From: Selenomonadaceae bacterium
GTDB taxonomy: Bacteria > Bacillota > Negativicutes > Selenomonadales > Selenomonadaceae
DNA length: 49,940 bases
Assembly: GCA_017635875.1 (NCBI GenBank)
Contig: JAGBKP010000144.1
Coordinates: 1-49,940, forward strand
Direction: 5' to 3'
Part shown: positions 810-49,940 of the stretch, in pieces
Position numbering within the stretch: position 1 is the first letter of the stretch
Layout of the letters: every line of letters starts with the position of its first letter
The notes under the pieces: generated by a model
Told to the model about the DNA's origin: nothing
Seen by the model: the letters and a program-made list of their open reading frames with translations, nothing else
Databases searched by the model: none
Translations under genes and position numbers: made by a program

Positions 810-889
810 CTACTTTCTTTTTTCTCTTTCTTTTTTATAAAAAAGAAAGAGAAAAAAGAAAGTAGCAAAGAAAAAAGAGAAAGAAAAAA
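810..889 (-). repeat. Tripartite pyrimidine/purine element, copy 1. Perfect 56-nt palindrome at 810-865 plus a mirror purine arm at 867-889. Reads Ym-Y-R on the minus (sense) strand.
   Basis: Arm 811-837 TACTTTCTTTTTTCTCTTTCTTTTTTA is the exact reverse complement of 838-864. Arm 867-889 AAAGAAAAAAGAGAAAGAAAAAA is the exact mirror (reverse, not complement) of purine arm 839-861. Confidence 0.9.
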
Positions 890-904
890 TTTTAATATAT
901 TTTT

Positions 905-6765: not shown

Positions 6766-8271
6766 ATGACGAATGTTTACGACAGATTGAACGATTTTTA
6801 TCTTAAAAATCCGGATGCAAAGTTTTATTTTCAACGGAAAATATTTGAGCGTCATTTAAGAAAATGCGCTTGGAAGGGCGATGATAAAAGCAAGCTGAAT
6901 TTGCGATTTGAACTTCTTTCGCGTATTGTTCTTTTTGCAATAGAAATTGATTTGGATTCTATCTGCGATTTAGTGCCGGAAGATTATTTGGAAATTTTTT
7001 ATAAACTTGCGGAAATAGAAAATAAAAATTTAGATGAAAAAACGGTTTTAAAATATATTAAATTTGTGAAGGAATTGTTTTTGGAAAGAGAGCCTGACGG
7101 CTTTGAAGGAAATATAGAAGAAATAGAATTCTTAAGGATGTTTTTTTACGACGAAGGCAAATTTCATCTCTTAAAAAGAGAAAATAAAAACAGCTATAAA
7201 AGCTGTATAAGACGAGATAAAACATCTTATGAAGAAATGCGGCAAATTGAATTTTTAAAAGAAAATTGGCTTGTAAAAATCAAGGAATATTTTAACAATT
7301 CCATTTTTGAAAAAGATTTAAAACGAGCCTTAACGATGTTTATTAACGGCAAGAAAAAATATGAAAAAGATGAAGAAAGCGAGAAGAAATTCCGCGATTA
7401 TTTCTTGTTTAATTATCGCTTAATCAGAACGGATGAAACTCCGCTTGAATTTTTTTATAAGAGGGAAAAAGAAAATTTAGACGATATTTCAACGCAAATA
7501 ATTGAGGAATATCTAAACTCAAAATTCACGATTTTTTATGTAAAACGAGAGGACGGCGATTCCTTTTTATGCAGGGATTTTTTCCGCGAACGCGAATTTT
7601 TTATTCCCTATTCGTCCGCTGATTTTCCGGAATATAAAAGCATCGTTTTCTCCGCTAATATTGAGGAAGGAACGATAGTAGCCCCTGCTTTTTTAAACGC
7701 TATATTTGCCGAAGAAGGCGAAATGGACAAGATAGTTAAAGAGATAAATTCCGCGTATAAGCTTTACGCCTATCAAGAAAAAAATCCCACTTACGCAAAA
7801 TTTTTTGCAAGGCACAATATGGCGGTTCGTCAAATAATAGCAGAAGTCGCCGTATTTCATAAAACGGACGTAATTCCGGAAGCCGTTGATATTGAAAATA
7901 TAAAAAGCGATTTAAATTTAACGGGGGATTATGAAAAACCAATAAACAAACTTATCAATATAGCGAAAAAAATAGAATTAAGCGAATATTCCATAAAACT
8001 TTTAAAGAAATATTACTCGGATTTTTTAACTAAATCAAAATTTACCAGATGGCAAAACGAAAACGACCTCGCGCTCTTTGCCGTGTTAAAAAATTTTGCG
8101 GAGCTAAACGGAGCAAAAAATTTTTATAAAATCGACGAATATTTCCCTCCCGACTTAGATATTGAAAAACTTCAAATTATGTCGACCGATATAAAAAATT
8201 TATTAAAAAGTGAAACATTTGATCCGCGTTATTTAACGGAAGAGGGATTTTTCAATTTGGTATGCAGTTAA
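6766..8271 (+). CDS. Hypothetical protein, 501 aa, no domain recognised
   Basis: Long uninterrupted ORF in a visibly AT-rich stretch, opposite in orientation to both neighbours. Followed by a bidirectional terminator. Confidence 0.6.
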   Translation: MTNVYDRLNDFYLKNPDAKFYFQRKIFERHLRKCAWKGDDKSKLNLRFELLSRIVLFAIEIDLDSICDLVPEDYLEIFYKLAEIENKNLDEKTVLKYIKFVKELFLEREPDGFEGNIEEIEFLRMFFYDEGKFHLLKRENKNSYKSCIRRDKTSYEEMRQIEFLKENWLVKIKEYFNNSIFEKDLKRALTMFINGKKKYEKDEESEKKFRDYFLFNYRLIRTDETPLEFFYKREKENLDDISTQIIEEYLNSKFTIFYVKREDGDSFLCRDFFREREFFIPYSSADFPEYKSIVFSANIEEGTIVAPAFLNAIFAEEGEMDKIVKEINSAYKLYAYQEKNPTYAKFFARHNMAVRQIIAEVAVFHKTDVIPEAVDIENIKSDLNLTGDYEKPINKLINIAKKIELSEYSIKLLKKYYSDFLTKSKFTRWQNENDLALFAVLKNFAELNGAKNFYKIDEYFPPDLDIEKLQIMSTDIKNLLKSETFDPRYLTEEGFFNLVCS

Positions 8272-17461: not shown

Positions 17462-17562
17462 CTGCCCAAAATTATCGTCAATATTTTACTCTTCTATTTT
17501 CTACCAAAAATAAAAAATCCCTGCTAATTTTTTTCAAGGTAAATTTTTTATTTTCCTTAACC

Positions 17563-17591
17563 TTGCGAAAACGATAATTTTCATATAAAAT
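17563..17591 (+). promoter_or_regulatory. Putative sigma-70-type promoter of the PLD-NTPase gene
   Basis: TTGCGA, 17-nt spacer, TAAAAT. About 40 nt upstream of the ATG at 17631, which is preceded by GGAGG. Confidence 0.4.
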
Positions 17592-17630
17592 GAGAACATA
17601 TTTCGTCTCGTTGTTTTTGGAGGAAAATCA

Positions 17631-19715
17631 ATGAAAGAGCTTTTTGCGGAGCCTTCTCTTTTTGTTTTGCATAACGGCGCATCTTGCGAATTTACGACTG
17701 ATGAAATATTTGACGCTTCTCGTTTTACAAAATTTTACGGCGTAAGTTATGTGTCAAGTCCTAAATTTTTCGCTGAAACCGTTCGCGATTTTAAAGAAGT
17801 TACGTTTATTTTGGGAATCCCCGATACCGATGTTTCTGGGAAATTCACCGACGCTTTAATAAACATTTTGGCCGAATCAGAAAACGGCGCGCTGTTTTTT
17901 AATTCGCTTTCAGGCGCGGCAAAAAATAAAATTGTCGATGGTTGTATGAATATCAGGTACGGCAGAGCCGGCGTTATGATTCACGACAAAATATATCTCT
18001 TGGCAAACGATGATACGAACGATTACAGGGTAATTATGGGCTCTGCGAATTTTTCCGCATCAGCTTTTAATGCAGAAAACAAAAATTACGAAAATATTCG
18101 GATAGACGATAATAAAGATCTGTATGATATATACAAAAAGCGTTGGGATTATCTTTATTCCGAAACGGAAGATTTTATACCGGAAATTTGCAAAAAGCAA
18201 TATAAGGACACAAAGACACAGATAGTGTTGGACGCGGAAACAAAATTTAATCTTTTGGTGGATAGGTTGGACGAAAATCGCGCAAATCTTATCGTGCCGG
18301 AAAATTATTTACAGGACATTCATAAAGAAACTCTATACATAAAGAAAAAACTTGAAAACGTCGAACAGACAAAGAAACTTTTGGGAGCGGTTCTTTCCGG
18401 CAAACGCAAAGACAATACGTATCGCGTTAAACTAAAGGAAAGCATAATAAAATCAAAACAGGGCATTAAAAATTATTTGGTAAAGACAAACAAGGACAGC
18501 GAAGATTTAAACGCATCACGCGAACTGTTGCTCTCTTCGGACGAAGAATACCTCTATAAAAAAATTAAAAACGAAGACGAGAGCGAAAACGGCGAATTAA
18601 CGTTATACTCCAAACTTGCGACGACAGACGAAATAAAATCCGCGCTTACCAAAATAGACGCTTTTACAAAGGCTTATTACGATTTTGCGATTGTCCCGAA
18701 CGAAGAAATACCGGGTAAAATTTACGAATCCATACTTTACGCATTCACTGCGCCTTTTATTTGGAGACTGAAGCAGGAATACGCGCTTCAGTACGACAGA
18801 GCGTCTGTAGGAGATATTCCTATGTTTTTGGTTATAGGCGGCGTAAGGGAGTCGGGGAAATCTACGCTTTTAAATTTTCTTGCGGGGCTTTTGGGGGAAT
18901 CCGGCGCAGATATTTACGATTACGCAAGAAGTCTGGATAAAGCCGGAAATCTTATGGATATGCTTGAAAGTTCAAATCTTTTGCCGATTATGACGGATGA
19001 AATTTCAAACAGCTTTTTCGGAAAATCTTCAAGCCCAAGAAAAGGAGAAAATTTAGTGAAACTTTTGTCCAATACAGTGCCTGAACATTCTATGGGCACG
19101 CTTATAGGTACGACGAATTACGCCGATTTTTCGTCTGCGGGGCAAGTGATAAGACGAATTTATTATCTTGAAGTAAACAATATGTTCGATTCCAAGAAGA
19201 AAAAGGAGTCGATGAATATTTTAAGAGATTTAAACGATGGTATAAGCGACGCGCTGTTTCGCGATTTTTCCTATCGTTTCGCGACTGAACTCAGAAACAG
19301 GGGCGAGGTCTTTCAAATCGACGATTTTCTTATACTTACGCGGCGTATTTTTAAAGACTACTACAAAGAATGTTCGATGACACCGCCAAAGTATTTCCCC
19401 GAGAAAAGATTTTTGGATTATGAAACCCGAAAAAAACTTGTTTGGAAACAGCTTTATTTTTCCACCGACAAGGAATATTTCAAAGACAACGGCGATATTT
19501 TGCAGGTGAACATCGACGCGCTTTTAAAGAACACCACGGGAAGCGCGCAGAAAAAGAAAAATCAACTCTTTGACTATATGGATGAAACTTGCTGGGCAAC
19601 GGACGCGGGTATAGGAATGTATTGGTTTTTGAAAAAGAAAGAATTTTTCAGATTTATCGAATACGAGCCTTCGTTTATACGCAAAACTCTTGATTTCCTT
19701 AAAATAAAATGGTAG
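17631..19715 (+). CDS. Fusion protein: N-terminal single-HKD PLD-family nuclease domain plus C-terminal SF3-helicase-like P-loop NTPase (candidate defence or mobile-element protein)
   Basis: 694 aa. HKD motif MIHDKIYLLANDD...IMGSANFSASAF (H118, K120, G137-S-x-N140). Walker A GGVRESGKST (403-412), Walker B LLPIMTDE (D456 E457), SF3 motif C LIGTTN (N496), and candidate arginine finger RR (508-509). Confidence 0.6.
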   Translation: MKELFAEPSLFVLHNGASCEFTTDEIFDASRFTKFYGVSYVSSPKFFAETVRDFKEVTFILGIPDTDVSGKFTDALINILAESENGALFFNSLSGAAKNKIVDGCMNIRYGRAGVMIHDKIYLLANDDTNDYRVIMGSANFSASAFNAENKNYENIRIDDNKDLYDIYKKRWDYLYSETEDFIPEICKKQYKDTKTQIVLDAETKFNLLVDRLDENRANLIVPENYLQDIHKETLYIKKKLENVEQTKKLLGAVLSGKRKDNTYRVKLKESIIKSKQGIKNYLVKTNKDSEDLNASRELLLSSDEEYLYKKIKNEDESENGELTLYSKLATTDEIKSALTKIDAFTKAYYDFAIVPNEEIPGKIYESILYAFTAPFIWRLKQEYALQYDRASVGDIPMFLVIGGVRESGKSTLLNFLAGLLGESGADIYDYARSLDKAGNLMDMLESSNLLPIMTDEISNSFFGKSSSPRKGENLVKLLSNTVPEHSMGTLIGTTNYADFSSAGQVIRRIYYLEVNNMFDSKKKKESMNILRDLNDGISDALFRDFSYRFATELRNRGEVFQIDDFLILTRRIFKDYYKECSMTPPKYFPEKRFLDYETRKKLVWKQLYFSTDKEYFKDNGDILQVNIDALLKNTTGSAQKKKNQLFDYMDETCWATDAGIGMYWFLKKKEFFRFIEYEPSFIRKTLDFLKIKW

Positions 19716-19745
19716 ATTTCAATAATTTAAGAAAGACGTGATATT

Positions 19746-20768
19746 TTGGAAAAAGATGTTTCAAAACAGGCGGGGTATTTTATCAAATACGGCTTGATTG
19801 TTTTTGTGGGAATTACTCTTATAATTTCATACGCGATATTTTCATATATGGATAAATCCGAAACTTTAACCATACGCGACGCAAAAATCGCGGGTACTTT
19901 CGTCAGTATAAAAGCGCAAGCGAACGGAAAACTTACGGAAATTCGAGTTAAAGACGGAGAAAACGTATCTGCGGGCGACGTACTAGCGACCGTTGAGGTT
20001 GCCGTTACCGAAGACACCATAAAACAGTTGGAGCAAAACGTTGCGCTTGCAAAAGAAAATTTAGAGCAACTTAAAAAGGGACAGGATATAAAGGTGCCCG
20101 TATCAACAGGCGTTGATTTAAGCGCGGCGAATGCGGATTTAGCGAGAGCCGAATCGCGTAAAAATCGTATGGAAGAACTCTTTAAAATGGGCGCGATAAG
20201 CAAGGTGCAAAGAAACGAAGCCGTAGCGGATTACGAGGCGGCAAAAGCGAGAGCGACGGCGAGCGCGCCGACATCTTACCAAACCCTGCATAAAGATACC
20301 GCGCCGGAAATTTTAGAAAGCGCGGCTCTTAATGTGCGTCAAGCGGAAGCCGCTTTAAAACGGGCAAAAGAAGACGCGTCCGCGACTGAAATAACTTCTC
20401 CCATAGACGGCGCGTTTTATTTGGCGAGCGTTGAAGAAGGAAGCGAAATTCACGCAGGCGAGCGGCTTTTTAACATAGGCGACGCTACGAATATGTGGAT
20501 AGAAGCGAGATTAAATTCGGAAACGCTCTCAAAAATCCGTCTCGGAGAACTTGTGACTTACGAGATAAACGGCAAAAAATTATCCGGCACGGTGACCGAA
20601 ATCGAAGAAGAAATAGCGTCAGACGAAAATGCTCCGCTTGCTACGGAGGGGGGCGCGCCAAAAGTGGAGGGGTCAGACGGCAAACGCGCCGTTAAGATTT
20701 CACTCGCGGACGAGGCTCTTGAAAATCTAAAACCCGGCGCGACCGTTTCCGTTACTTTTCGTTCGTGA
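19746..20768 (+). CDS. HlyD/EmrA-family membrane-fusion (periplasmic adaptor) protein with no adjacent transporter
   Basis: 340 aa. N-terminal TM segment, lipoyl-like hairpin (GKLTEIRVKDGENVSAGDVLATVE), a long coiled coil, and a beta-barrel segment (ITSPIDGAFY...GERLFNIGD). TTG start. Confidence 0.75.
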   Translation: MEKDVSKQAGYFIKYGLIVFVGITLIISYAIFSYMDKSETLTIRDAKIAGTFVSIKAQANGKLTEIRVKDGENVSAGDVLATVEVAVTEDTIKQLEQNVALAKENLEQLKKGQDIKVPVSTGVDLSAANADLARAESRKNRMEELFKMGAISKVQRNEAVADYEAAKARATASAPTSYQTLHKDTAPEILESAALNVRQAEAALKRAKEDASATEITSPIDGAFYLASVEEGSEIHAGERLFNIGDATNMWIEARLNSETLSKIRLGELVTYEINGKKLSGTVTEIEEEIASDENAPLATEGGAPKVEGSDGKRAVKISLADEALENLKPGATVSVTFRS

Positions 20769-20861
20769 AATATGAATAAAAACCTCGTATTTTTTCTTCT
20801 AAAATCTATATATACTCAAAATTTTTAAATAATTTTTATTGCAGAATAAAGGTGTTTATCA

Positions 20862-21863
20862 TTGAATTACATAGGTTCAAAATATTCTTTGCTTGATTTT
20901 TTGACGGAAACAATATCTAGCGTAACTGGGTATAAGAGTGGAGATTCATATATTTTTGCAGATTTGTTTGCGGGAACCGGCATTGTCGGACAAACTTTTA
21001 AAAGTATGGGGTGTAAAGTTATTGCAAATGATATTCAATATTACAGTTATACATTAAATAAGCATTTTATTGAGAATGTACCGAAAATGGACAACAGTTT
21101 AACCGATTATTTAAATTCCCTTACCCCAATACAAGGATTTGTATATAATAATTATTGCGCCGGAGGAGATAAAGGCAGAAATTATTTCATTGATGATAAC
21201 GGTATGCTTTGCGACGCTATAAGGAATGAACTTGAAAAATTAAGATTTAACAAAGATATTGACGAAGGAACTTATTTTTATTATCTTGCCAGTTTAATCA
21301 ATTCGATTGACAAATACGCAAATACTGCTTCTGTTTATGGAGCATATTTAAAGCATGTAAAAAAATCTGCGGCAAAACCTTTTAAATTGGAACTGCTTCC
21401 CGTTATAGACGGCGAAAAAGGCAAGGTCTACAACGAAGATATCAATAAACTGATAAAAACCGTTGAGGGAGATGTTTTATATTTAGACCCCCCGTATAAT
21501 TCAAGACAGTATTCGTCAAATTATCATGTTTTGGAAACGATTTCAAGATACGATAATCCAATATTAATCGGTAAAACCGGACTTAGAGATTCAACATCGC
21601 AGAAGAGTAAATACTGTTCCAAAAGAACAGTTGTAGATATGTTTGAAGATTTGATAAAACGCGCTAAATTTAAATATATTTTCCTTTCTTACAATAATGA
21701 GGGTTTAATGGACTTGAACACCATAAAAAACATAATGTCAAAATACGGCAAATATATTATTTTTACCAAAGATTATAAAAGATTTAAGGCGGATAGCGAG
21801 AAAAACCGAAATATTAAAGCAAATTCAACTACCGAATATTTGCATGCTCTGATAAAGGAGTAA
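20862..21863 (+). CDS. N6-adenine DNA methyltransferase, Dam/D12-class (alpha motif order)
   Basis: 333 aa. N-terminal NYIGSK box, AdoMet motif FADLFAGTG (32-40), and catalytic DPPY (209-212). TTG start after AAAGGTG. Confidence 0.85.
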   Translation: MNYIGSKYSLLDFLTETISSVTGYKSGDSYIFADLFAGTGIVGQTFKSMGCKVIANDIQYYSYTLNKHFIENVPKMDNSLTDYLNSLTPIQGFVYNNYCAGGDKGRNYFIDDNGMLCDAIRNELEKLRFNKDIDEGTYFYYLASLINSIDKYANTASVYGAYLKHVKKSAAKPFKLELLPVIDGEKGKVYNEDINKLIKTVEGDVLYLDPPYNSRQYSSNYHVLETISRYDNPILIGKTGLRDSTSQKSKYCSKRTVVDMFEDLIKRAKFKYIFLSYNNEGLMDLNTIKNIMSKYGKYIIFTKDYKRFKADSEKNRNIKANSTTEYLHALIKE

Positions 21864-21865
21864 TT

Positions 21866-22654
21866 ATGGCAAGGTATAATGATTTAGATCCTAAAAAGTG
21901 GAAAGAATATGCGGACATCATAACGGATTCTCTTTGGCTGATAGATAAAAGAGATAATTCCGGAGCGCATAGCGGGGACTATCACGGAAATTTTGTGCCA
22001 CAAATACCGCATCAACTTTTTACAAGATATACAAAAAAAGGCGATTGGATTTTAGATCCATTTGCGGGCAGCGGCACTACCTTAATAGAGGCTCAACGCA
22101 TGGAACGAAATTCCATAGGCATAGAATTATTGCCGAAAGTGGCAAAGAAGGCGCATGAAGCGATTCAAACGGAACATAAGCGAAATATAGTTTCCAAAAT
22201 AATTACAGGCGACAGTAGAAATATTGATTTAAGCGAGTTATTGTCAATTTTTCAAATTAAGAAAGTACAATTTATTATTATGCATCCCCCATATTGGGAC
22301 ATAATTAAATTTTCTGACAATAAAAACGATTTATCAAATACTTTAACTCTTGGCGATTTTTTAGACGCTTTTGGAGAGGTAATTGAGAATACTTCAAAAT
22401 ATTTGGAAAGATACAGATATTTGGCCTGCGTTATTGGCGATAAATACATGAACGGACAAGTAGTGCCTTTAGGCTTCCATTGTATGAATAAGTTTTTGGA
22501 AAAAGGTTTTTTACTAAAGGCTATATTGGTAAAAAACTTCGGAGAAACAAGAGGCAAAGCGGGAAATCAAGGAATATGGCGATATAGAGCCATTGCCAAC
22601 GATTTTTATATCTTTAAACATGAATATATTTTTGTGTTTAAGAAACTGAAGTAA
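21866..22654 (+). CDS. Second DNA methyltransferase of the R-M cassette (amino-MTase; motif I precedes motif IV; catalytic tetrapeptide HPPY)
   Basis: 262 aa. ILDPFAGSGTTLIEA (63-77), GDSRNI, and IIMHPPYWD (137-145). Starts 2 nt after the first methyltransferase gene. Confidence 0.72.
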   Translation: MARYNDLDPKKWKEYADIITDSLWLIDKRDNSGAHSGDYHGNFVPQIPHQLFTRYTKKGDWILDPFAGSGTTLIEAQRMERNSIGIELLPKVAKKAHEAIQTEHKRNIVSKIITGDSRNIDLSELLSIFQIKKVQFIIMHPPYWDIIKFSDNKNDLSNTLTLGDFLDAFGEVIENTSKYLERYRYLACVIGDKYMNGQVVPLGFHCMNKFLEKGFLLKAILVKNFGETRGKAGNQGIWRYRAIANDFYIFKHEYIFVFKKLK

Positions 22655-22658
22655 AATA

Positions 22659-23258
22659 TTATTTGTCTTCTTTCAAATGTCTTTTAAATTCCAGCGGATC
22701 ATACCAATAACAACCTATACAGGCATTTTCTTCGTTGTTGTGATGGGCTTCGCCCGCATAATAACTCATAGGATAACCCAGTTTTTTTGCGTCGTATCTA
22801 ATTTTATTTTTTTTACACTCTTTACAAAATTGTCTTTTAGCATCGTTTGCGGCTTTTGATAAAGGTTGAAAATCCGAAAGTTTTTGATCTTCGTTTTTCA
22901 TTACTCGGCTTTCGTTTTTCATACCGTTTTTATGATCTACTTCCGGATTGGAGGTGCCTAAAACTACACAACGCTGACTTTTTATGACTTTTTTAATGTC
23001 GCTCCTAATATGTTGAGAAAATTCATCATTATTAAAACCGTTTAATCGTATTCTGTCTATACTGTTGCCGGCAGTTATGGATTTATCAAATTCGATAATG
23101 TATTTTTTAGCGAGAGCAGACTCTTTTCTTGCCCAAGACGCACCGTTTCCAAATGTTAGATGCTTGTATTCTCCAACGAATTCAGATATGCTTACCCAGC
23201 GACTTACACCATCTTTATTGGGATTTGCTAATTTTAAAAACAACTCCGTTTTAGTCAT
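22659..23258 (-). CDS. Small HNH (beta-beta-alpha-Me) restriction endonuclease with a Cys4 zinc ribbon
   Basis: 199 aa. EVDHKNGMKNE...FQPLSKAANDAKR (H109, N138), plus CKEC (145-148) and CIGC (180-183). Convergent with the methyltransferases (4-nt gap) and immediately downstream of the C gene. Confidence 0.62.
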   Translation of the reverse strand: MTKTELFLKLANPNKDGVSRWVSISEFVGEYKHLTFGNGASWARKESALAKKYIIEFDKSITAGNSIDRIRLNGFNNDEFSQHIRSDIKKVIKSQRCVVLGTSNPEVDHKNGMKNESRVMKNEDQKLSDFQPLSKAANDAKRQFCKECKKNKIRYDAKKLGYPMSYYAGEAHHNNEENACIGCYWYDPLEFKRHLKEDK

Positions 23259-23259
23259 T

Positions 23260-23469
23260 TCAATCCTCCATAAGTAGCTTATATGCGTCTATATTTAAAG
23301 CCCCCGCAATTTTTTGAATATTGTTGATAGAAACATTCCTTTCTCCTCGTTCGATATCGCTGATGTATGTTCTGTGCAAATCGCATAGTTCAGCGAATTT
23401 TTCTTGCGATATTTCTAAATTTTTGCGATGTTTACGAACATTTTTGCCAAAAATATGCGCCAATTCCAT
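23260..23469 (-). CDS. R-M controller (C) protein, XRE-family HTH
   Basis: 69 aa. LEISQEKFAELCDLHRTYISDIERGERNVSINNIQKIAGAL closely matches the C-protein HTH pattern. Its stop lies 1 nt before the endonuclease ATG. Confidence 0.78.
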   Translation of the reverse strand: MELAHIFGKNVRKHRKNLEISQEKFAELCDLHRTYISDIERGERNVSINNIQKIAGALNIDAYKLLMED

Positions 23470-28389: not shown

Positions 28390-28533
28390 AAATTCGCTTG
28401 ACGCTGATTTTGAAATAATTTAAAATATAGCTTGTGTTAATAATTTATAAAAATAATAAAGTTTTTTCAGGCTGTAAATAAAACTAAAAATTAAAAGCAA
28501 TAACAAAAAATTAATCAATAGAGTTTAGTAAAG

Positions 28534-28616
28534 TTTTCTTTCTCTCTTTTCTTCTTTGTTACTTTCTTCTTTTCTCTCTTTCTTTTTCAAAAGAAAGAGA
28601 GAAAAGAAGAAAGTAA
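28534..28616 (+). repeat. Tripartite pyrimidine/purine element, copy 2 (Ym 28534-28557, hairpin 28559-28616)
   Basis: Y arm 28559-28586 is the exact reverse complement of R arm 28589-28616 (2-nt loop). Ym TTTTCTTTCTCTCTTTTCTTCTTT is the exact mirror of the Y tract. Confidence 0.9.
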
Positions 28617-29277: not shown

Positions 29278-29297
29278 ATTTAAAAAATAAAAAGTGT

Positions 29298-29332
29298 AAA
29301 AAACAATATAGAAAAAACAATATAGAAAAAAC
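29298..29332 (+). repeat. Tandem 14-nt repeat (AAAAAACAATATAG, 2.5 copies) in the flank of element copy 3
   Basis: Direct reading: AAAAAACAATATAG AAAAAACAATATAG AAAAAAC. Confidence 0.85.
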
Positions 29333-29354
29333 TAATCAACAGAGTCTATTAAAA

Positions 29355-29431
29355 TTTTTTCTCTCTCTTTTTCTTTGCTACTTTCTTTTTCTCTCTCTTT
29401 TTTATAAAAAAGAGAGAGAAAAAGAAAGTAG
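29355..29431 (+). repeat. Tripartite pyrimidine/purine element, copy 3 (Ym 29355-29376, perfect 54-nt palindrome 29378-29431)
   Basis: Ym TTTTTTCTCTCTCTTTTTCTTT, Y CTTTCTTTTTCTCTCTCTTTTTT (29381-29403), R AAAAAAGAGAGAGAAAAAGAAAG (29406-29428). Y/R are exact reverse complements and Ym/Y are exact mirrors. Confidence 0.92.
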
Positions 29432-36686: not shown

Positions 36687-36766
36687 TTACTTTCTTTTTC
36701 TCTTTTCTTTTTTGAAAAAAAGAAAAGAGAAAAAGAAAGTAACAAAGAAAAAGAGAAAAGAAAAAA
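36687..36766 (-). repeat. Tripartite pyrimidine/purine element, copy 4 (hairpin 36687-36742, mirror purine arm 36744-36766). Reads Ym-Y-R on the minus strand.
   Basis: Y arm TTACTTTCTTTTTCTCTTTTCTTTTTT pairs with R arm AAAAAAGAAAAGAGAAAAAGAAAGTAA. Arm AAAGAAAAAGAGAAAAGAAAAAA is the exact mirror of R. Starts 6 nt after the skp3 stop. Confidence 0.9.
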
Positions 36767-36821
36767 CTTTAATATAATTAAATTATGTACTTGAACATAT
36801 TTTTTGTCTTTTATATTAAAG

Positions 36822-36895
36822 TTCTTTTTCTTTCTTTCTTTTGGTAATTTTCTTTCTTTCTTTTTCTTTCAAGAAAAAGAAAGAAAGAAAAGTAC
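36822..36895 (+). repeat. Tripartite pyrimidine/purine element, copy 5 (Ym 36822-36842, Y 36848-36868, R 36871-36891)
   Basis: Ym TTCTTTTTCTTTCTTTCTTTT is the exact mirror of Y TTTTCTTTCTTTCTTTTTCTT. R AAGAAAAAGAAAGAAAGAAAA is the exact reverse complement of Y (2-nt loop). Confidence 0.9.
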
Positions 36896-45366: not shown

Positions 45367-45545
45367 ATTTTAATCGGATTTCTCTTCATAGTAAACTTTC
45401 ATTTTTGGTACATAATTCCATTCAATATAATTTTTCATATAGGTTGCGTATATCTTTCAAAACATGACGATCAATTCTTCGATTGTCTAAAGGCGTACCA
45501 AAATAAAAAGAATTATTATACGACCTAACAAAGTAAATTGATTTT

Positions 45546-45893
45546 TTGGGTTTTATGATATATAATTATCAGAAATATATGAGAAAATTGAATGGAATGA
45601 ATTTTATGTTTTATCCTTTTTTATCGCTATCAGACGGAACAGAAATTGTTTATTCCGATTTAAAACAAAAAGATATCAAAAATTATGTAATTGTTAAATT
45701 TGAACGTTGGAATGAAAAGCGAGATGATTTTGACAGTATGGAATGTGAATTGCCTAATGGGAATATGAAAAAAATTATAGGTTTTACGGATGAAGAGGTT
45801 AAGCATTATCATAAGAAAATGATACATCTTCAAGATATGATTCTTGAATGTTCTAAGGAAGATACGGAGATGGAATTATGCAAAAGAATATAA
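45546..45893 (+). CDS. Hypothetical small protein
   Basis: 115-aa ORF in the AT-rich island. The true start is possibly an internal Met (MNFMFYPF...). No recognisable domain. Confidence 0.4.
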   Translation: MGFMIYNYQKYMRKLNGMNFMFYPFLSLSDGTEIVYSDLKQKDIKNYVIVKFERWNEKRDDFDSMECELPNGNMKKIIGFTDEEVKHYHKKMIHLQDMILECSKEDTEMELCKRI

Positions 45894-46120
45894 ATTTTAA
45901 ATACAAATACAATCCTAGTGATTTTGAAGATGAAGAAGAAAAATATTTCAAAGATTGGTTGGATAAAATGTATAAAGGATATGAAGATAAAGACCCAGTA
46001 CAATTTGAAATGTATCGCGCATTTGCAACGGATGAATTAAAGTGTCTATGGAAAAGCGGAGTCATAGCTAAAGTAAAGGCAGATGAAATAAAAGAATATA
46101 TTTGGGGGTTAAAAGTATAA
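45878..46120 (+). CDS. Hypothetical small acidic protein
   Basis: 80-aa ORF overlapping the previous ORF by 16 nt and followed by a strong terminator. Confidence 0.4.
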   Translation: MQKNINFKYKYNPSDFEDEEEKYFKDWLDKMYKGYEDKDPVQFEMYRAFATDELKCLWKSGVIAKVKADEIKEYIWGLKV

Positions 46121-46190
46121 TTGATTTAACTGAAGCAAAAATGTAAAGAAAAACGAATTATAGTCTATAACATTATATAGGTATTGCAAT

Positions 46191-46222
46191 AAAAAAAGAC
46201 TGTCAACCGACAGTTTTTTTTG
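46191..46222. terminator. Bidirectional rho-independent terminator
   Basis: AAAAAAA-GACTGTC-AACC-GACAGT-TTTTTTTT. Confidence 0.8.
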
Positions 46223-46366
46223 CAATATTTACATATTTTCTTCAGATGTTAGAAACTCTAACACGCCATCTTCATAATTAGCATAACCTGCATTGACCAT
46301 TAAGGCTATTAACAAATCAAAATCGTTGCCGCGATTTAATGATAAATTTAAGGAAGGTGAGAAATA

Positions 46367-47467
46367 ATGCAAATAAACTTAATGCATCTCGATATTCCTG
46401 TTGCTTTTCTTAATATCGACGATGAAAGAGGATATATTCACAGCGATATTAAAATTATTACTAAAGAACATTTGCCAATATCAGTCCTAACTTCTAGTAA
46501 TATTGCGCTATCGTTACAAAATTGGGTGGATAATAGAAGCATACCTCTATCCCGAAAAAATCTAAATATGCTTTTAAACGATAAAATAAATTCACCTCGT
46601 ATGCTTTCCTTTAAAAGTCTTGGACTGAATTTATCCGATTGTTATTGGTTTAAACCTGTTGCTCTTGATTTGACTTGGAAACAAGTCAATCTATTTAACA
46701 ACGATTTTACTTCTAAAATTTTTTTAGAAAATAATTTAAAAATAAATCCCGATTATAGTTCTAATGGAGAATTACTAAAATATTGGAAAATAGAAAACGG
46801 AAAAAGATTTCTCTATAAAGAGGGAACTTTGCCTTTTTATCAAGAACCCTTTAATGAGGTTTTTGCTTCAAAACTACTAAAAAAATTAAATTTACCGCAC
46901 ATAAAATACGAATTAACAACAATAGATAATAATATTTATAGCGTATGTGAAACTTTTTCCAACGAAAATACAGAATATATTCCCGCCAATGAAATTTTAA
47001 ATGTCAGAACAAAGTTAAACCACGAAAGCGCATATTTACACTTTATTGAATGTATCAAATCTCTAAATATTCCTATCGGACAGAATTTTTTAGATAATAT
47101 GATTTGTTTTGATTATTTAATTCATAATGAAGATAGGCATTACGGCAATTTTGGTTTTTTGCGTAATGCAGAAACTCTTGAATTTATAAATACCGCTCCT
47201 ATTTTTGATAGTGGAAACAGTCTTTGGTATCATAATCTTACAAAAGATATAAAATTTAAAGACCGCCCCGCTAAACCGTTTAAAGACACACAAGAAAAAC
47301 AAATTAAATTAGTAAAAAATATTTTTCCTGTAAATATTACAAACGAATGGATTAAAGACACTTTATATGAAATTTATTCACAAAACGAATTATTTGACGA
47401 TGAAAGAATTGAAAAATTAACTGACGTTGTAATAACCTTAAAAAGTTTTTTACTAAAAAGGAGTTGA
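46367..47467 (+). CDS. HipA-like serine/threonine kinase (toxin-type) with no adjacent HipB
   Basis: 366 aa. Catalytic loop IHNEDRHYGNFGF (D256-x-H-x-x-N261) and Mg-binding APIFDSGNS (D281), spaced as in the HipA C-terminal domain. N-terminal SLSDCYWFKP-type motif. Confidence 0.72.
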   Translation: MQINLMHLDIPVAFLNIDDERGYIHSDIKIITKEHLPISVLTSSNIALSLQNWVDNRSIPLSRKNLNMLLNDKINSPRMLSFKSLGLNLSDCYWFKPVALDLTWKQVNLFNNDFTSKIFLENNLKINPDYSSNGELLKYWKIENGKRFLYKEGTLPFYQEPFNEVFASKLLKKLNLPHIKYELTTIDNNIYSVCETFSNENTEYIPANEILNVRTKLNHESAYLHFIECIKSLNIPIGQNFLDNMICFDYLIHNEDRHYGNFGFLRNAETLEFINTAPIFDSGNSLWYHNLTKDIKFKDRPAKPFKDTQEKQIKLVKNIFPVNITNEWIKDTLYEIYSQNELFDDERIEKLTDVVITLKSFLLKRS

Positions 47468-47832
47468 AATCAATGTCGGACAAAACATTTAAAAATATAA
47501 AAAAAGCCGCCCCTTTTTTATTCGGAGCGGCTCAAGTATTCGGAAGCGCAATATTTACTTTAATACTTGCAATTTTTTTGCTTGCAAATGTTATAATCGG
47601 AAGTATGAAAATAAATTCTTTATCCGAGCGAATTGAAGCATTGGAAGAAAAAAATCAAAACATTGTCGAAATTCAAAAAGAAATGGAAGAGCAACGAAAA
47701 ACTTTAGAAATTTTGATAGGCGAAAGAAAGCAACAAACAGAAGTAAATAAATTTGACGATGCTCTCGACAAGTTTTTGGAGCGAACCATAAAATTAAGCG
47801 AAGCTATTAAAGAGCAGGAAAATAAGAAGTAA
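47464..47832 (+). CDS. Membrane-anchored coiled-coil protein, translationally coupled to the HipA-like gene
   Basis: 122 aa. One TM segment (FGSAIFTLILAIFLLANVIIG), then a Glu/Lys-rich coiled coil. The TTG at 47464 overlaps the kinase TGA; an alternative ATG lies at 47473. Confidence 0.5.
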   Translation: MKSMSDKTFKNIKKAAPFLFGAAQVFGSAIFTLILAIFLLANVIIGSMKINSLSERIEALEEKNQNIVEIQKEMEEQRKTLEILIGERKQQTEVNKFDDALDKFLERTIKLSEAIKEQENKK

Positions 47833-47850
47833 AATAGACAAATATATAAC

Positions 47851-47891
47851 CGCCAGAAACTAGATTTTATCTAAGTTTCTAGCGTTTTTTT
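47851..47891 (+). terminator. Rho-independent terminator
   Basis: CGCCAGAAACT...AGTTTCTAGCG stem followed by T7. Confidence 0.75.
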
Positions 47892-47905
47892 ATATTTACT
47901 CTGAA

Positions 47906-47934
47906 TTGACAGAATTTTATATAAATGATATAAT
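47906..47934 (+). promoter_or_regulatory. Consensus sigma-70 promoter (TTGACA, 17 nt, TG-n-TATAAT)
   Basis: TTGACA at 47906-47911, a 17-nt spacer ending in TGA, and TATAAT at 47929-47934. This is a perfect match to both hexamers plus the extended -10. Confidence 0.65.
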
Positions 47935-48040
47935 GAAACAAAAATATTGCTTTTTCTTCAAATACAAAAAGGATTTCGCACCCCTTATCTCGAATATATC
48001 TTCAGTAGTAAATCGAGAGAAAGGGTGTGAAACTTCATAT

Positions 48041-49024
48041 ATGGCAGAAAATACAAGCAATACGCCTTTTGATGATGCATACAGAACTTTATCCGCAAAG
48101 GGTACAAGGTTGATGATACCTTTGATAAATTATATGTTTCATCAAAAGTATTCGATGGATGTACCTATAACGCTTTTAAATAATGAAACCAACGAAGATA
48201 ATTCAAAGGCAATTACAGATTCAAGATTTATGGTTGGGGATAATCATTTATATAATATCTTTATTATCGAAGAACAAACAAATTTAGATAAAGATATTCC
48301 ATATCGTTTATACGATTATATGTTAAGGCATGCGCTTTCTCATCTATCTAAAATGTATAAAAACGGGAAAATTATTCTTCCAAGCGTAGGCGTTTTAAAT
48401 CTTCGTGATGACAATAAAGATATAAAACCTATGACATTAGTGCATACAAACAGTGAAATTGATGTTACTATGAAGGACATCAGTATGCAAAATGTTGAAA
48501 ATCTTGAAAAATTAGCGGAAAACAAATTATACTGTTTAATGCCGTTTTACGCTTTTATGATGGAAAAGCGGTTAAGAAATTCCGATACCGAAGAAGCAAA
48601 GAAATTGTATTTGCAAGAACTTAGTAAGTATCGTGATATAATAGAGAAAGCTAAAAATAATGGAGATTTAATTGCTGACGAATCGTATACTTTAGACGAT
48701 ATAAGGCAAATGGTAATAGATGGTCTTAAATTTGAAAAAGATGGTTTAAATACAAAGGAGTTGGAAAAAATGGGAGGAAGAATTGTAGAATTAGAACATG
48801 AAAAAAGATTTAGAGAAGGACAAGAAAAAGCTGAATTTTCTGTGTTCCAAAATTTAATGACTCCAATATTAAAGAAACATAAAAATATTGAAGATGGGAA
48901 AAGATTATGCAATACATTATTACCAAATTGGGGAATGGCAAAGATTAATAGTAAAGTAGCTGAGTTAGCTCATAAACTCAATGTTGATTTAGGTCCCACA
49001 TCTCCGCCGCTTCCCCCACGTTAA
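48041..49024 (+). CDS. PD-(D/E)XK nuclease, Rpn/YhgA-like ('transposase_31'-type) protein
   Basis: NTPFDDAYRTL start resembles the Rpn N-terminal box. The D...EEQ core (ITDSRFMVGD...IFIIEEQT) fits the family pattern as I recall it. ATG at 48041 preferred, because the ORF-track TTG at 47906 is the promoter -35 box. Confidence 0.55.
   Translation: MAENTSNTPFDDAYRTLSAKGTRLMIPLINYMFHQKYSMDVPITLLNNETNEDNSKAITDSRFMVGDNHLYNIFIIEEQTNLDKDIPYRLYDYMLRHALSHLSKMYKNGKIILPSVGVLNLRDDNKDIKPMTLVHTNSEIDVTMKDISMQNVENLEKLAENKLYCLMPFYAFMMEKRLRNSDTEEAKKLYLQELSKYRDIIEKAKNNGDLIADESYTLDDIRQMVIDGLKFEKDGLNTKELEKMGGRIVELEHEKRFREGQEKAEFSVFQNLMTPILKKHKNIEDGKRLCNTLLPNWGMAKINSKVAELAHKLNVDLGPTSPPLPPR
48728..48819 (+). repeat. 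92-nt direct repeat, copy A (inside the Rpn-like gene)
   Basis: About 85 of 92 nt identical to 49052-49143 (AAATTTGAAAAAGATGGTTTAAATACAAAGGAGTTGGAAAAAATGGGAGGAAGAATTGT...). Confidence 0.9.
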
Positions 49025-49294
49025 GGTACTTCAACTAATGATACCTTTGATAAATTTGAAAAAAATGGTTTAAATACAAAGGAGTTGGAAAAAATGGGAG
49101 GAAGAATTGTTGAGTTAGGACATGAAAAGAGATATAGAGAAGGCATTGAACAAGGTAGACGAGAAGCCACCGCTAAATATGGAGCAGAAAATGCAAAATT
49201 AAAAGCACAAATTGCAGAACTTCAACAATATAAGAAAAGATACGATAAGTTGGAAGCAAAATTTAACAAAAAAACCGCCGCCCCCCAACGCTAA
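49024..49294 (+). pseudogene. Internally deleted remnant of a second Rpn-like paralog
   Basis: 49024-49057 matches 48100-48133 (GGTAC...ATGATACCTTTGATAAATT). 49052-49143 matches 48728-48819. The two 3' ends are also similar (CCGCCGC..CCCC.ACG.TAA). About 600 nt of internal gene sequence is missing. Confidence 0.6.
49052..49143 (+). repeat. 92-nt direct repeat, copy B
   Basis: See copy A. Confidence 0.9.
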
Positions 49295-49311
49295 CAAACA
49301 AAAGAAAGGTC

Positions 49312-49605
49312 GTGAACATAGTGGAATTTAACAGTAGACCTATGGAAGTCGGTTTTGCATTTGCCGATAAAGAAGCATATAATTTATATGAAATAACAGA
49401 AAATCTCGAAGAATATTACAGACAAAAAGCTCCGAATTTATGGAACGCTTGGATTAGAACAAATAATATGTTGGTGGAACAGCAAGAACGGTTAGATAAA
49501 CAAGGTGTGAAATTAAATAATTTAAATACAACATTAAATAATTTGAACAAAAAATTAGATTTTTTGATAAATCAACAAGAAAAACAAAATAATTTTTCAA
49601 GGTAA
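49312..49605 (+). CDS. Hypothetical coiled-coil protein
   Basis: 97-aa ORF with a GTG start and an Asn/Leu-rich coiled-coil C-terminus. Followed by a terminator hairpin (AAGAAGCC...GGCTTCTT plus T-run) at 49611-49650. Confidence 0.4.
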   Translation: MNIVEFNSRPMEVGFAFADKEAYNLYEITENLEEYYRQKAPNLWNAWIRTNNMLVEQQERLDKQGVKLNNLNTTLNNLNKKLDFLINQQEKQNNFSR

Positions 49606-49650
49606 ATTAAAAGAAGCCGAGGATTTGATTCCTAGGCTTCTTTTTTTTGA

Positions 49651-49940
49651 TTATTTTTTTCCTTTTTTATCAGCTAAATCTTTATGACTAACTGTTCCGG
49701 TTGCGGGAGCTGATACCGGCACCCACGCAAATGTGCTGTTAGTTCCGCTAGGCGACATAACCTGCGCTTTTGCAAATTTTCCATCGCTAGAAATATTGCT
49801 GGGGTCAGAATTGGGAAGTTTAGAATATTGTAAACCTCCCGCGCTTCCTTGAGGTAAAACTGCCGAAAATGTTGGTAATTGCGGTTTATCCGAATTACGA
49901 ACGGGAATATTGGGATTTAATCCTTGCAACATTCTTTCAA
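49651..49940 (-). CDS. Hypothetical protein, C-terminal part (may continue beyond the right edge)
   Basis: Open frame to the window edge. Ser/Pro/Gly-rich with a Lys-rich tail. No domain recognised. Confidence 0.3.
   Translation of the reverse strand, partial: ERMLQGLNPNIPVRNSDKPQLPTFSAVLPQGSAGGLQYSKLPNSDPSNISSDGKFAKAQVMSPSGTNSTFAWVPVSAPATGTVSHKDLADKKGKK

Follow-up and report, generated by a model that had tools for sequence, protein, structure and literature searches.

The question raised by five short intergenic elements in a chromosome segment of a Selenomonadaceae bacterium (GenBank assembly GCA_017635875.1, contig JAGBKP010000144.1, positions 1 to 49,940; these 49,940 nucleotides are called the window hereafter) is what keeps three arms of one DNA strand matched to each other when the arms differ from copy to copy. 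Each element, called a cassette here, contains a hairpin made of a pyrimidine arm (Y) and a purine arm (R), preceded by a second pyrimidine arm (Ym) that mirrors Y. A preliminary description of the five copies had argued that the mirror arm is maintained and not accidental, and had offered two explanations, either selection on a three-stranded structure or a mechanism copying all three arms from one template. The comparison of many more copies described below points to the first.

Architecture and covariation of the three arms

The window was scanned for purine or pyrimidine runs of at least 15 nt, and the copies found were re-oriented to the order pyrimidine–pyrimidine–purine (Ym-Y-R) before the arms were compared. 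The cassette is about 85 bases long, intergenic, and consists of a box, TTATTAAA(G/A), followed by the third arm Ym, G(C/T)TA, the Y arm, a 2-nt loop, the R arm and TA(G/A). Y and R are reverse complements of each other and give the hairpin. Read in the same 5′→3′ direction as R, Ym has a T for each A and a C for each G of R; it is a parallel complement of R, or equivalently the mirror image of Y. The geometry is that of a pyrimidine-motif intrastrand triplex (T·A-T and C+·G-C) foldable from one strand, and all copies, with Ym, a linker of 1–5 nt, Y, a loop of 2–4 nt and R, have the block order of intrastrand triplex class IV. A degenerate pattern of this architecture matched the five window sites only and had no match in 100 dinucleotide-preserving shuffles of the window, by which chance or low complexity was rejected as the origin.

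The tracts quoted in the preliminary description were recovered both by the tract scan and by direct reading, and the five purine tracts all differ. Its statement that no mirror arm carries a mismatch over 21–24 positions agreed with the measurement, which gave zero mismatches between Ym and R in every copy, and the Watson–Crick arms were paired over 21–25 positions, so that both arms do carry the matching changes in each copy (Table 1). The "extra" purines ascribed to copy 4 had to be corrected, as they belong to the loop.

Further copies were collected by scanning species-representative genomes, metagenomes and viral contigs (IMG/VR) for the junction TCTTTGYT(A/W)CTTTCTT, copies being those among the matches listed; the sample is thereby skewed to two of the clamp subtypes described below, A and B. 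The pooled set, from the window species, two Selenomonadaceae metagenome-assembled genomes (MAGs) and rumen metagenomes, held at least 107 distinct copies. All three arms agreed perfectly in 84 of these 107, with 39 different arm sequences. The arms of the perfect variants are 14–25 nt long, mostly 21–24, and reach 29 in one imperfect copy. Seventeen pairs of perfect variants are separated by a single A/G substitution present in all three arms (T·A-T to C+·G-C or the reverse, for instance L017 and L062 in our locus numbering), and 15 pairs by one 1-nt insertion or deletion, again in all three. In the first set of 87 copies, Ym matched the R arm of its own copy perfectly in 87% of cases, and that of another copy in 1.2%.

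For the formal pairing counts a gapless class of 32 distinct sequences was used, and Ym was written in reverse to let its parallel pairs nest. In the third arm 99.9% of the cells were paired and 7 of 23 positions had changed on both sides; for the Watson–Crick arms the values were 99.8% and 8 of 27. None of 500 shuffles attained the observed pairing or covariation score for the third arm or the Watson–Crick arms, a significance that is inflated because the copies share descent, which counts against the selection proposed below, although the comparison of the third arm with the Watson–Crick arms is still fair. Sliding the register by 1–3 columns lowered the match to 74–82% for the third arm and 69–77% for the Watson–Crick arms.

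The defects were distributed in a similar way over the arms. Lone single-arm defects affected Y in 8 copies, R in 3–4 and Ym in 3–7, about equal numbers (L043 has T→C in Ym, L014 A→G in R), and among the Watson–Crick defects 7–8 were of the G·U type and 3 of the A·C type. Purine/pyrimidine hairpins without a recognisable third arm were found seven times in about 1 Mb of loci, three of these being cuts at contig ends and one a decayed copy. The third arm is thus kept as well as the Watson–Crick arms, and hairpin-only copies are essentially absent. The covariation across the arms of many copies, which the preliminary description had called for, bears out its claim that the mirror arm is maintained, and mismatches accumulating freely in the mirror arm beside an intact hairpin, the situation it had named as contrary evidence, were not seen.

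Three further features accompany the arms. First, the last box base, directly 5′ of Ym, and the second position of the apical loop covary. Of 82 copies with G in the box, 80 have C in the loop, and all 24 copies with A have T; the coupling held on the six arm backgrounds that occur with both types. Since the 5′ end of Ym sits at the apical loop in the triplex fold, this cap contact is predicted by that fold, and it ties Ym to the R side and not to the Y side. Second, 4 bp at the foot of the hairpin extend beyond the cover of Ym and form a clamp whose outermost pair covaries (GTTA..TAA in 50 copies, GCTA..TAG in 22 and GGTA..TAC in 3–4, with zero cross combinations). Three clamp subtypes were distinguished, A (G+YTAC/GTAR), B (G+CTTC/GAAG) and C (G+GTAC/GTAC), and in all of them a single G joins Ym to the clamp.

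Third, the arms are about 80% A/T, and each copy has 3–6 isolated C+·G-C triples. Adjacent G/C triples are rarer than expected, being present in 2 of the 39 variants against 20 ± 2.9 expected, and both exceptions carry the doublet in all three arms. C+·G-C triples are stable when isolated and flanked by U/T·A-U/T, and in natural RNA triplexes at cellular pH a run of them is destabilising (PMC7583470); the scarcity of adjacent G/C triples matches this published rule. The spacing of successive G positions in the perfect arms was also uneven, with 2, 4 and 6 nt favoured (54, 27 and 16 cases), 5 nt intermediate (13) and 3 and 7 nt rare (5 and 4).

As to the two explanations offered initially, copying from a single template was not supported, because Ym repeats the bases of Y in reverse order without complementing them, and no Watson–Crick template for such an arm exists. 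Foldback synthesis or template switching can make Y from R but not Ym, and, judging from these sequence relations, an origin of the mirror arm by this route would be geometrically impossible. Since Watson–Crick-templated copying could not make the mirror arm, the three-stranded fold would therefore be under selection, as the other explanation had it, and the 39 perfect variants would require such selection. The single-step neighbours and the two-of-three intermediates (in L122, Y and R are altered and Ym is not) point likewise to selection on the fold. As far as we could find, this would be new evolutionary evidence for long triplexes maintained in bacteria.

Copies, family and cassette exchange

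Table 1. Cassette copies in the window. Parts are given 5′ to 3′ along the cassette, with letters on the cassette strand except for copy 4, where they are those of the plus strand. Watson–Crick and third-arm columns give matched over compared positions.
Feature	Positions	Strand	Tract cluster	Context	Watson–Crick	Third arm	Box	Ym	Linker	Y	Loop	R	3′ clamp
Copy 1	810–898	-	813–889	upstream of hslV	24/24	23/23	ATATTAAAA 898–890	889–867	G + clamp CTA 866–863	862–839	AT 838–837	836–813	TAG 812–810
Copy 2	28525–28616	+	28534–28613	upstream of nth	25/25	24/24	TTAGTAAAG 28525–28533	28534–28557	GTTA 28558–28561	28562–28586	TC 28587–28588	28589–28613	TAA 28614–28616
Copy 3	29346–29431	+	29355–29428	upstream of GNAT acetyltransferase gene	23/23	22/22	CTATTAAAA 29346–29354	29355–29376	GCTA 29377–29380	29381–29403	AT 29404–29405	29406–29428	TAG 29429–29431
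Copy 4	36687–36775	-	36690–36766	left member of divergent pair, toward skp 3′ end	24/24	23/23	reverse complement 36767–36775	complement 36744–36766	TAAC 36740–36743	complement 36716–36739	36714–36715	complement 36690–36713	TTA 36687–36689
Copy 5	36813–36895	+	36822–36892	right member of pair, upstream of lpxD	21/21	21/21	ATATTAAAG 36813–36821	36822–36842	GGTAA 36843–36847	36848–36868	TC 36869–36870	36871–36892	TAC 36893–36895
Spacer of divergent pair, copies 4/5	36767–36821	.		55 nt box-to-box									

Gene context in the window was taken from our calls based on open reading frames, and the genes include hslV, a DUF3089 gene, uvrC, nth, a GNAT gene, priA, skp/ompH, lpxD and lpxL. For the Skp protein of the window the look-up gave no record. 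The sequence of copy 1 is unchanged in 9 independent metagenome or MAG contigs. Copy 2 has single-arm variants in three individual strain contigs, and a promoter-like TTGACG-17-TAAAAT lies about 100 nt upstream of it. In copy 5 one A·G mismatch is present at the first stem pair below the triplex, outside it, caused by a window-specific C→A at 36847; other strains have GGTAC there, giving a perfect GTAC/GTAC clamp. This position is one of several one-base differences in an arm or clamp that are confined to single contigs, the others being in L249 (copy 4 linker) and in L194, L196 and L197 (copy 2; the change in L194 is a C→A in Ym). Such differences could be recent mutations or assembly errors.

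The five copies are members of a high-copy dispersed family of intergenic cassettes of rumen Selenomonadaceae, which are outer-membrane-bearing Firmicutes. With 5 copies in the window and 1 in the adjoining 10 kb, the density is about 1 copy per 10 kb. The hslV, nth and lpxD proteins were found with the same cassettes on several ruminant gut metagenome contigs and in the MAG GCA_017940025.1. In the scan of species-representative genomes nearly all matches listed were in the rumen Selenomonadaceae MAGs RGIG9261 and RGIG6591; in the metagenome scan, copies came from about 23 rumen-sample loci, and about 97 of 120 loci were chance junction matches without three arms. A phage origin was rejected, as the IMG/VR contigs gave 51 chance loci among the matches listed, none with the architecture. 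Genes shared by the window species and RGIG9261 are about 73% identical, and the family therefore spans well-diverged species.

Close pairs were found 11 times, all divergent and box-to-box, ten of them 54–71 nt apart and one 125 nt apart, and the partners in each pair always have different arms. The whole pair of copies 4 and 5 is 80% identical to a pair at a different RGIG9261 locus (L051). Composite pairs of this kind have inverted ends by construction, and no target-site duplication is definable, filled and empty orthologous sites being only about 73% identical.

A sixth copy of the window species (L001:12723-12807, also in L005 and L006) lies between a Fic gene and an esterase gene that are convergent. 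Ym and Y of this copy agree with each other and are 1 nt longer than R, TTTTTT follows directly, and in L006 the Y arm is rearranged. Several contigs from metagenomes and MAGs (L005, L006, L252, L253 and L254) end inside or beside a cassette, as expected of a dispersed repeat, and short-read assemblies of these genomes appear to be broken up by the family. A second, G/C-rich dispersed repeat, ..GCCAAAGGGCnnnGCCCTCTGGACTCCCGG.., is present in both Selenomonadaceae MAGs (L067:5770-5880), often directly upstream of a cassette. It was also seen upstream of copies in L042, L046, L053, L058, L023 and L033, with none in the window, and is sometimes followed by TTGACA, 17 nt before the cassette box.

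At orthologous loci, where the preliminary description had proposed to look for substitutions as compensated triples, stepwise triples were not seen; the differences are en-bloc replacements of cassettes, bounded by the element. Two alleles of copy 3 exist among contigs with identical Nth protein. The first, in the window and five other contigs, has arms with ..GAGAGAGAAAAAG.., a box ending in AAAA and loop AT, and the second, in three contigs, has arms with ..GAAAGAGAAAAAAG.. (the commonest variant of the family), a box ending in AAAG and loop TC. In the second allele the replacement extends over all three arms, the loop and the final base of the box, and the sequence immediately outside the cassette is identical. 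Upstream of copy 3, at 29296-29323, the window has a 14-nt tandem duplication (ACAATATAGAAAAA twice), present as one unit in the strains with the second allele. Between RGIG9261 and RGIG6591, whose flanks are about 90–97% identical, the arms differ at 6 of 9 orthologous loci, including two subtype swaps, and they are perfect at these loci apart from one copy with a lone R-arm change. The site upstream of lpxD is occupied in both the window species and RGIG9261, with different arms, and the orthologous skp–lpxD spacer of RGIG9261 is without copy 4.

The differences are too numerous and coordinated for independent mutation over such distances, so that whole cassettes must have been replaced. The route was probably gene conversion between dispersed copies, which is favoured because the cassette is the only homology that these share. 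Overwriting of whole cassettes explains the perfect triples seen between strains and orthologous loci. Copy-to-copy conversion spreads or repairs three-arm consistency but cannot create variants.

Other parts of the window were noted in passing. Gene strand and GC skew both flip near 17.5 kb, and the AT-rich stretch 17500-23300, which encodes a PLD/NgoFVII-like nuclease (17631-19715) and an IceA-like protein (22659-23258), is a possible restriction-modification island. A 501-aa open reading frame without a Pfam match at 6766-8271 (+ strand) lies in a patch of GC 0.32, opposite in strand to all its neighbours, and is kept in other contigs of the window species. The region 45500-49900 (GC 0.29–0.35), with a HipA-like kinase gene (46367-47467) and open reading frames without Pfam matches, may be an accessory island.

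RNA or DNA as the working form

In the proposed fold the 24–29-bp hairpin of Y and R would form, and the 5′ arm Ym would lie in its major groove, parallel to the purine arm, making 14–25 T(U)·A-T(U) and isolated C+·G-C triples (17–25 in all but one copy). The single G would link Ym to the hairpin by crossing the triplex-free 4-bp clamp, and the structure would be capped where the last box base meets its complement, the second base of the loop. The 1-nt linker over a 4-bp clamp resembles loop 1 of H-type pseudoknots, which crosses the deep groove, and pyrimidine-motif RNA triplexes are known from that class; the resemblance would favour an RNA fold.

The working form is proposed to be RNA, within intergenic or 5′-leader mRNA, where the cassette would have the role of a REP element, but one capped by a triple helix. 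The very stable structure would insulate neighbouring mRNA segments and shield them from exonucleases, and processing would take place in the single-stranded, AU-rich box immediately before it. RNA as the working form, with a REP-like role in mRNA protection, is the reading preferred here, at about even confidence. That one strand holds all three arms speaks for a working form that is single-stranded, since H-DNA in a duplex needs a mirror pair only. Many copies are located in short operon-like spacers and must be transcribed. RNA is also favoured by the 2:1 orientation bias (42 solo copies in the same direction as the downstream gene and 22 opposite), by the excess of G·U-type defects and by a composition suited to the pyrimidine motif, whereas it is disputed whether RNA can serve as the third strand of a purine-motif triplex. 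The RNA hairpin was predicted by folding to be very stable, with z-scores between −3.4 and −7.3. No detected copy is inside a gene, and about 60% are followed by a ribosome-binding site and start codon within 6–60 nt. More tentatively, the transcribed cassettes may be by far the longest natural RNA triple helices known, with 14–25 consecutive U·A-U and C+·G-C triples, acting in general protection or insulation of mRNA ends and present in hundreds of hypervariable copies per genome. On this reading, the 3–6 isolated C+·G-C triples per copy could also make the device a protonation-dependent (pH-sensitive) switch under the pH swings of the rumen.

The preferred reading has several points against it. 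Every sequence analysed comes from a metagenome assembly, and triplex formation in vivo is proposed from covariation only. Because whole cassettes are replaced frequently, perfection at a locus need not mean selection at that locus. The orientation bias is weak (p about 0.02), as is the excess of G·U over A·C defects (p about 0.2). A third of the solo copies are antisense to the flanking genes and equally perfect (19 of 22, compared with 26 of 32 sense copies), so the stronger decay of gene-antisense copies expected if sense mRNA alone mattered was not seen. Lastly, tandem, divergent and convergent spacers are all occupied, which is the pattern of a DNA-level or selfish element.

Simpler roles for the arms at the RNA level and known RNA classes were also considered. 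Ym as a copy-specific anti-Shine-Dalgarno strand, an idea prompted by predicted folds in which Ym pairs with the ribosome-binding site, was rejected, as it pairs with its own site at −8.69 kcal/mol and with that of another copy at −8.50 (p = 0.10); this pairing reflects generic CU/AG complementarity. There were zero Rfam matches at the gathering threshold in the whole window, and relaxed thresholds gave only generic long-hairpin (miRNA-precursor) matches far under their cut-offs. No tRNA or tmRNA was found.

That DNA is the working form is a possible though rather unlikely alternative. The cassette would be extruded under negative supercoiling, or would fold on single-stranded DNA at replication forks, with a pyrimidine-motif triplex in the top strand and a purine-motif triplex in the bottom strand. 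As each strand carries three arms, no strand would be left unpaired. Its role would be that of a REP/BIME-like supercoil sink, a protein-binding or fork-pausing site, or a recombination hot spot. This would account for arm integrity independent of orientation, for copies in every intergenic class and for an organisation in inverted pairs as in BIMEs, and the A6/T6 centre together with the AT-rich box would ease extrusion. Whole-cassette exchange and assembly breaks at the elements would suit recombinogenic triplex DNA; intrastrand triplex motifs have been tied to local genome instability (Holder et al. 2015, PMC4666352). The composition, however, with sparse and isolated C, is tuned to the pyrimidine motif only. 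The purine-motif partner, with about 80% A·A-T triples, is expected to be weak. The 2:1 orientation bias and the asymmetry of G·T over A·C defects would be unexpected if both strands mattered equally. In addition, for the best-studied bacterial triplex motif, double-stranded DNA gave no triplex in vitro or in vivo.

A selfish non-autonomous mobile element, moved in the manner of REP/RAYT or IS200/IS605, is an improbable explanation. A nuclease or transposase acting in trans would cut the folded single-stranded DNA at the box TTATTAAAG, and the triplex would be needed for mobilisation only. The many strictly intergenic copies in both orientations, the conserved single-stranded box beside a structure of freely varying sequence, the recurrence of composite inverted pairs at unrelated loci, and the presence/absence and subtype swaps at orthologous sites would all fit. 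Nevertheless, no evident target-site duplication was seen, the degenerate fossil copies typical of MITE or REP families are nearly absent, and zero copies were found in viral contigs among the matches listed. No transposase turned up either, none having been searched for. Moreover, site occupancy is kept across species about 73% identical while the content changes, for which conversion is a better fit than excision and reinsertion.

Less probable still is a promoter or terminator module, in which the box would be a −10 element (TAAAGT or TATTAA, often with TG before), the divergent pairs back-to-back promoters and the hairpin a terminator or attenuator. TTGACA stands 17 nt upstream of the box in some copies (L042, L053 and L067), TTTAAA-17-TATATT lies ahead of copy 1, and the constant box-to-box arrangement of the pairs at nearly uniform distance would be in agreement, as would the GGTTTT(T) found 2–5 nt after the stem, although only in about 30% of family members. 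Against this, the terminator scan flagged none of the five window copies and promoter-like matches occurred at the background rate, so both an intrinsic terminator and a sigma-70 promoter were rejected. No −35 element is conserved across copies, and the predicted starts would fall 5–8 nt inside Ym, whose first bases covary with R (runs of T7, T6, T4 and T2 at the start of Ym are paired to A7, A6, A4 and A2 in R). The third arm would be left without explanation.

Template switching at quasi-palindromes is an established way to equalise two hairpin arms, and the arms here are low-complexity sequence, but the absence of any selection on the triplex, with the arms arising by templated copying, chance or misassembly, can practically be dismissed given the missing Watson–Crick template for Ym, the empty window shuffles, about 150 chance junction matches in viral and metagenome contigs without the architecture, and the recovery of the same cassettes from several assemblers, samples and databases, by which an assembly artefact was rejected.

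Relation to known elements and significance

Literature searches found no account of this cassette family. The closest relatives are the prokaryotic intrastrand triplex motifs, namely the PIT elements (BoxC, TM_ECO) and the ITxF catalogue (Hoyne et al. 2000; Holder et al. 2015, PMC4666352), which likewise place Hoogsteen, pyrimidine and purine blocks consecutively on one strand and are repeated, intergenic, sometimes in inverted pairs and linked to local genome variability. In the scheme given there, the sense strand of the cassette belongs to class IV and the opposite strand is automatically a class II purine-motif candidate. TM_ECO is described in the 2015 paper (PMC4666352) as a G/C-rich purine motif with 9-nt stems and a fixed consensus, CCCTCNCCC N3-6 GGGNGAGGG N3 GGGNGAGGG. 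The cassettes do not have the BoxC/TM_ECO consensus, their arms being about 80% A/T and 14–25 nt long, and, unlike TM_ECO, they are A/T-rich and tuned to the pyrimidine motif, with arms that are hypervariable from one copy to the next yet agree inside any one copy. Over and above what PIT and TM_ECO motifs have, the cassettes carry the conserved 5′ box, the clamp of 4 bp and the cap contact. The ITxF search covered stems of 6–15 nt only, compared with cassette arms of 14–25 nt (29 in one imperfect copy). The available text of Holder et al. 2015 (PMC4666352) reports no Hoogsteen covariation, and for the best-studied bacterial intrastrand triplex motif neither function nor in vivo formation could be shown.

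The pyrimidine-motif RNA triplexes of H-type pseudoknots and ENE elements (telomerase RNA, the SAM-II and preQ1-II riboswitches, PAN and MALAT1) share with the proposed fold a U-rich strand parallel to the purine strand in the major groove, U·A-U with isolated C+·G-C triples and avoidance of consecutive C+·G-C (PMC7583470), and a very short linker from the third strand to the 5′ end of the Watson strand. Natural RNA triplexes mostly have 3–6 triples, whereas the cassette fold would have 14–25, and the cassettes exist in hundreds of hypervariable copies per genome instead of one conserved gene. The ENE of PAN and MALAT1 uses a U-rich internal loop to clamp an A-rich tract or poly(A); the cassette has no A-rich 3′ tail to clamp, its hairpin is continuous and its third strand is the 5′ pyrimidine arm, so it falls outside the ENE definition. 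The Ym/Y/R topology is also that of an H-type pseudoknot, but stem 1 of the cassette would be at most the single covarying contact between box and loop.

As in REP/BIME, ERIC, BOX and Correia elements, the cassettes are high-copy structured intergenic palindromes that occur in both orientations, in inverted pairs and inside operons, and evolve in concert between copies. They fit the REP/BIME description as high-copy intergenic palindromes in both orientations with inverted clusters, but not its stem conservation: in REP elements the stem sequence is conserved across a genome and there is no third arm, whereas cassette stems are hypervariable, with 39 perfect variants among 107 copies. With H-DNA, including the GAA·TTC "sticky DNA", the cassettes share a canonical mirror repeat, Ym-GYTA-Y, with a 4–5-nt spacer and GAA/GAAA/GA-like sequence, and they conform to the mirror-repeat definition. 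The difference is that H-DNA needs the mirror pair only; the cassette has an obligatory inverted third arm, and a single strand would fold without a duplex partner.

Catalogues of bacterial sequences that could form intrastrand triplexes go back 25 years. The present family supplies a kind of evidence that was missing, natural covariation of a Hoogsteen arm as strong as that of the Watson–Crick arms, and the cap, the clamp rule and the avoidance of adjacent C+ would make no sense unless the three-stranded structure both forms and is under selection. It also offers a testable system, with dozens of natural compensated triple mutants and with single-arm defects as controls. If the RNA form is active, natural RNA triplexes would extend over a size range several times that known now, and the cassettes would be a source of orthogonal, programmable triplex modules. 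For the rumen Selenomonadaceae, the family appears to be a practical cause of assembly breaks in MAGs and is a clear case of concerted evolution via cassette exchange among dispersed repeats.

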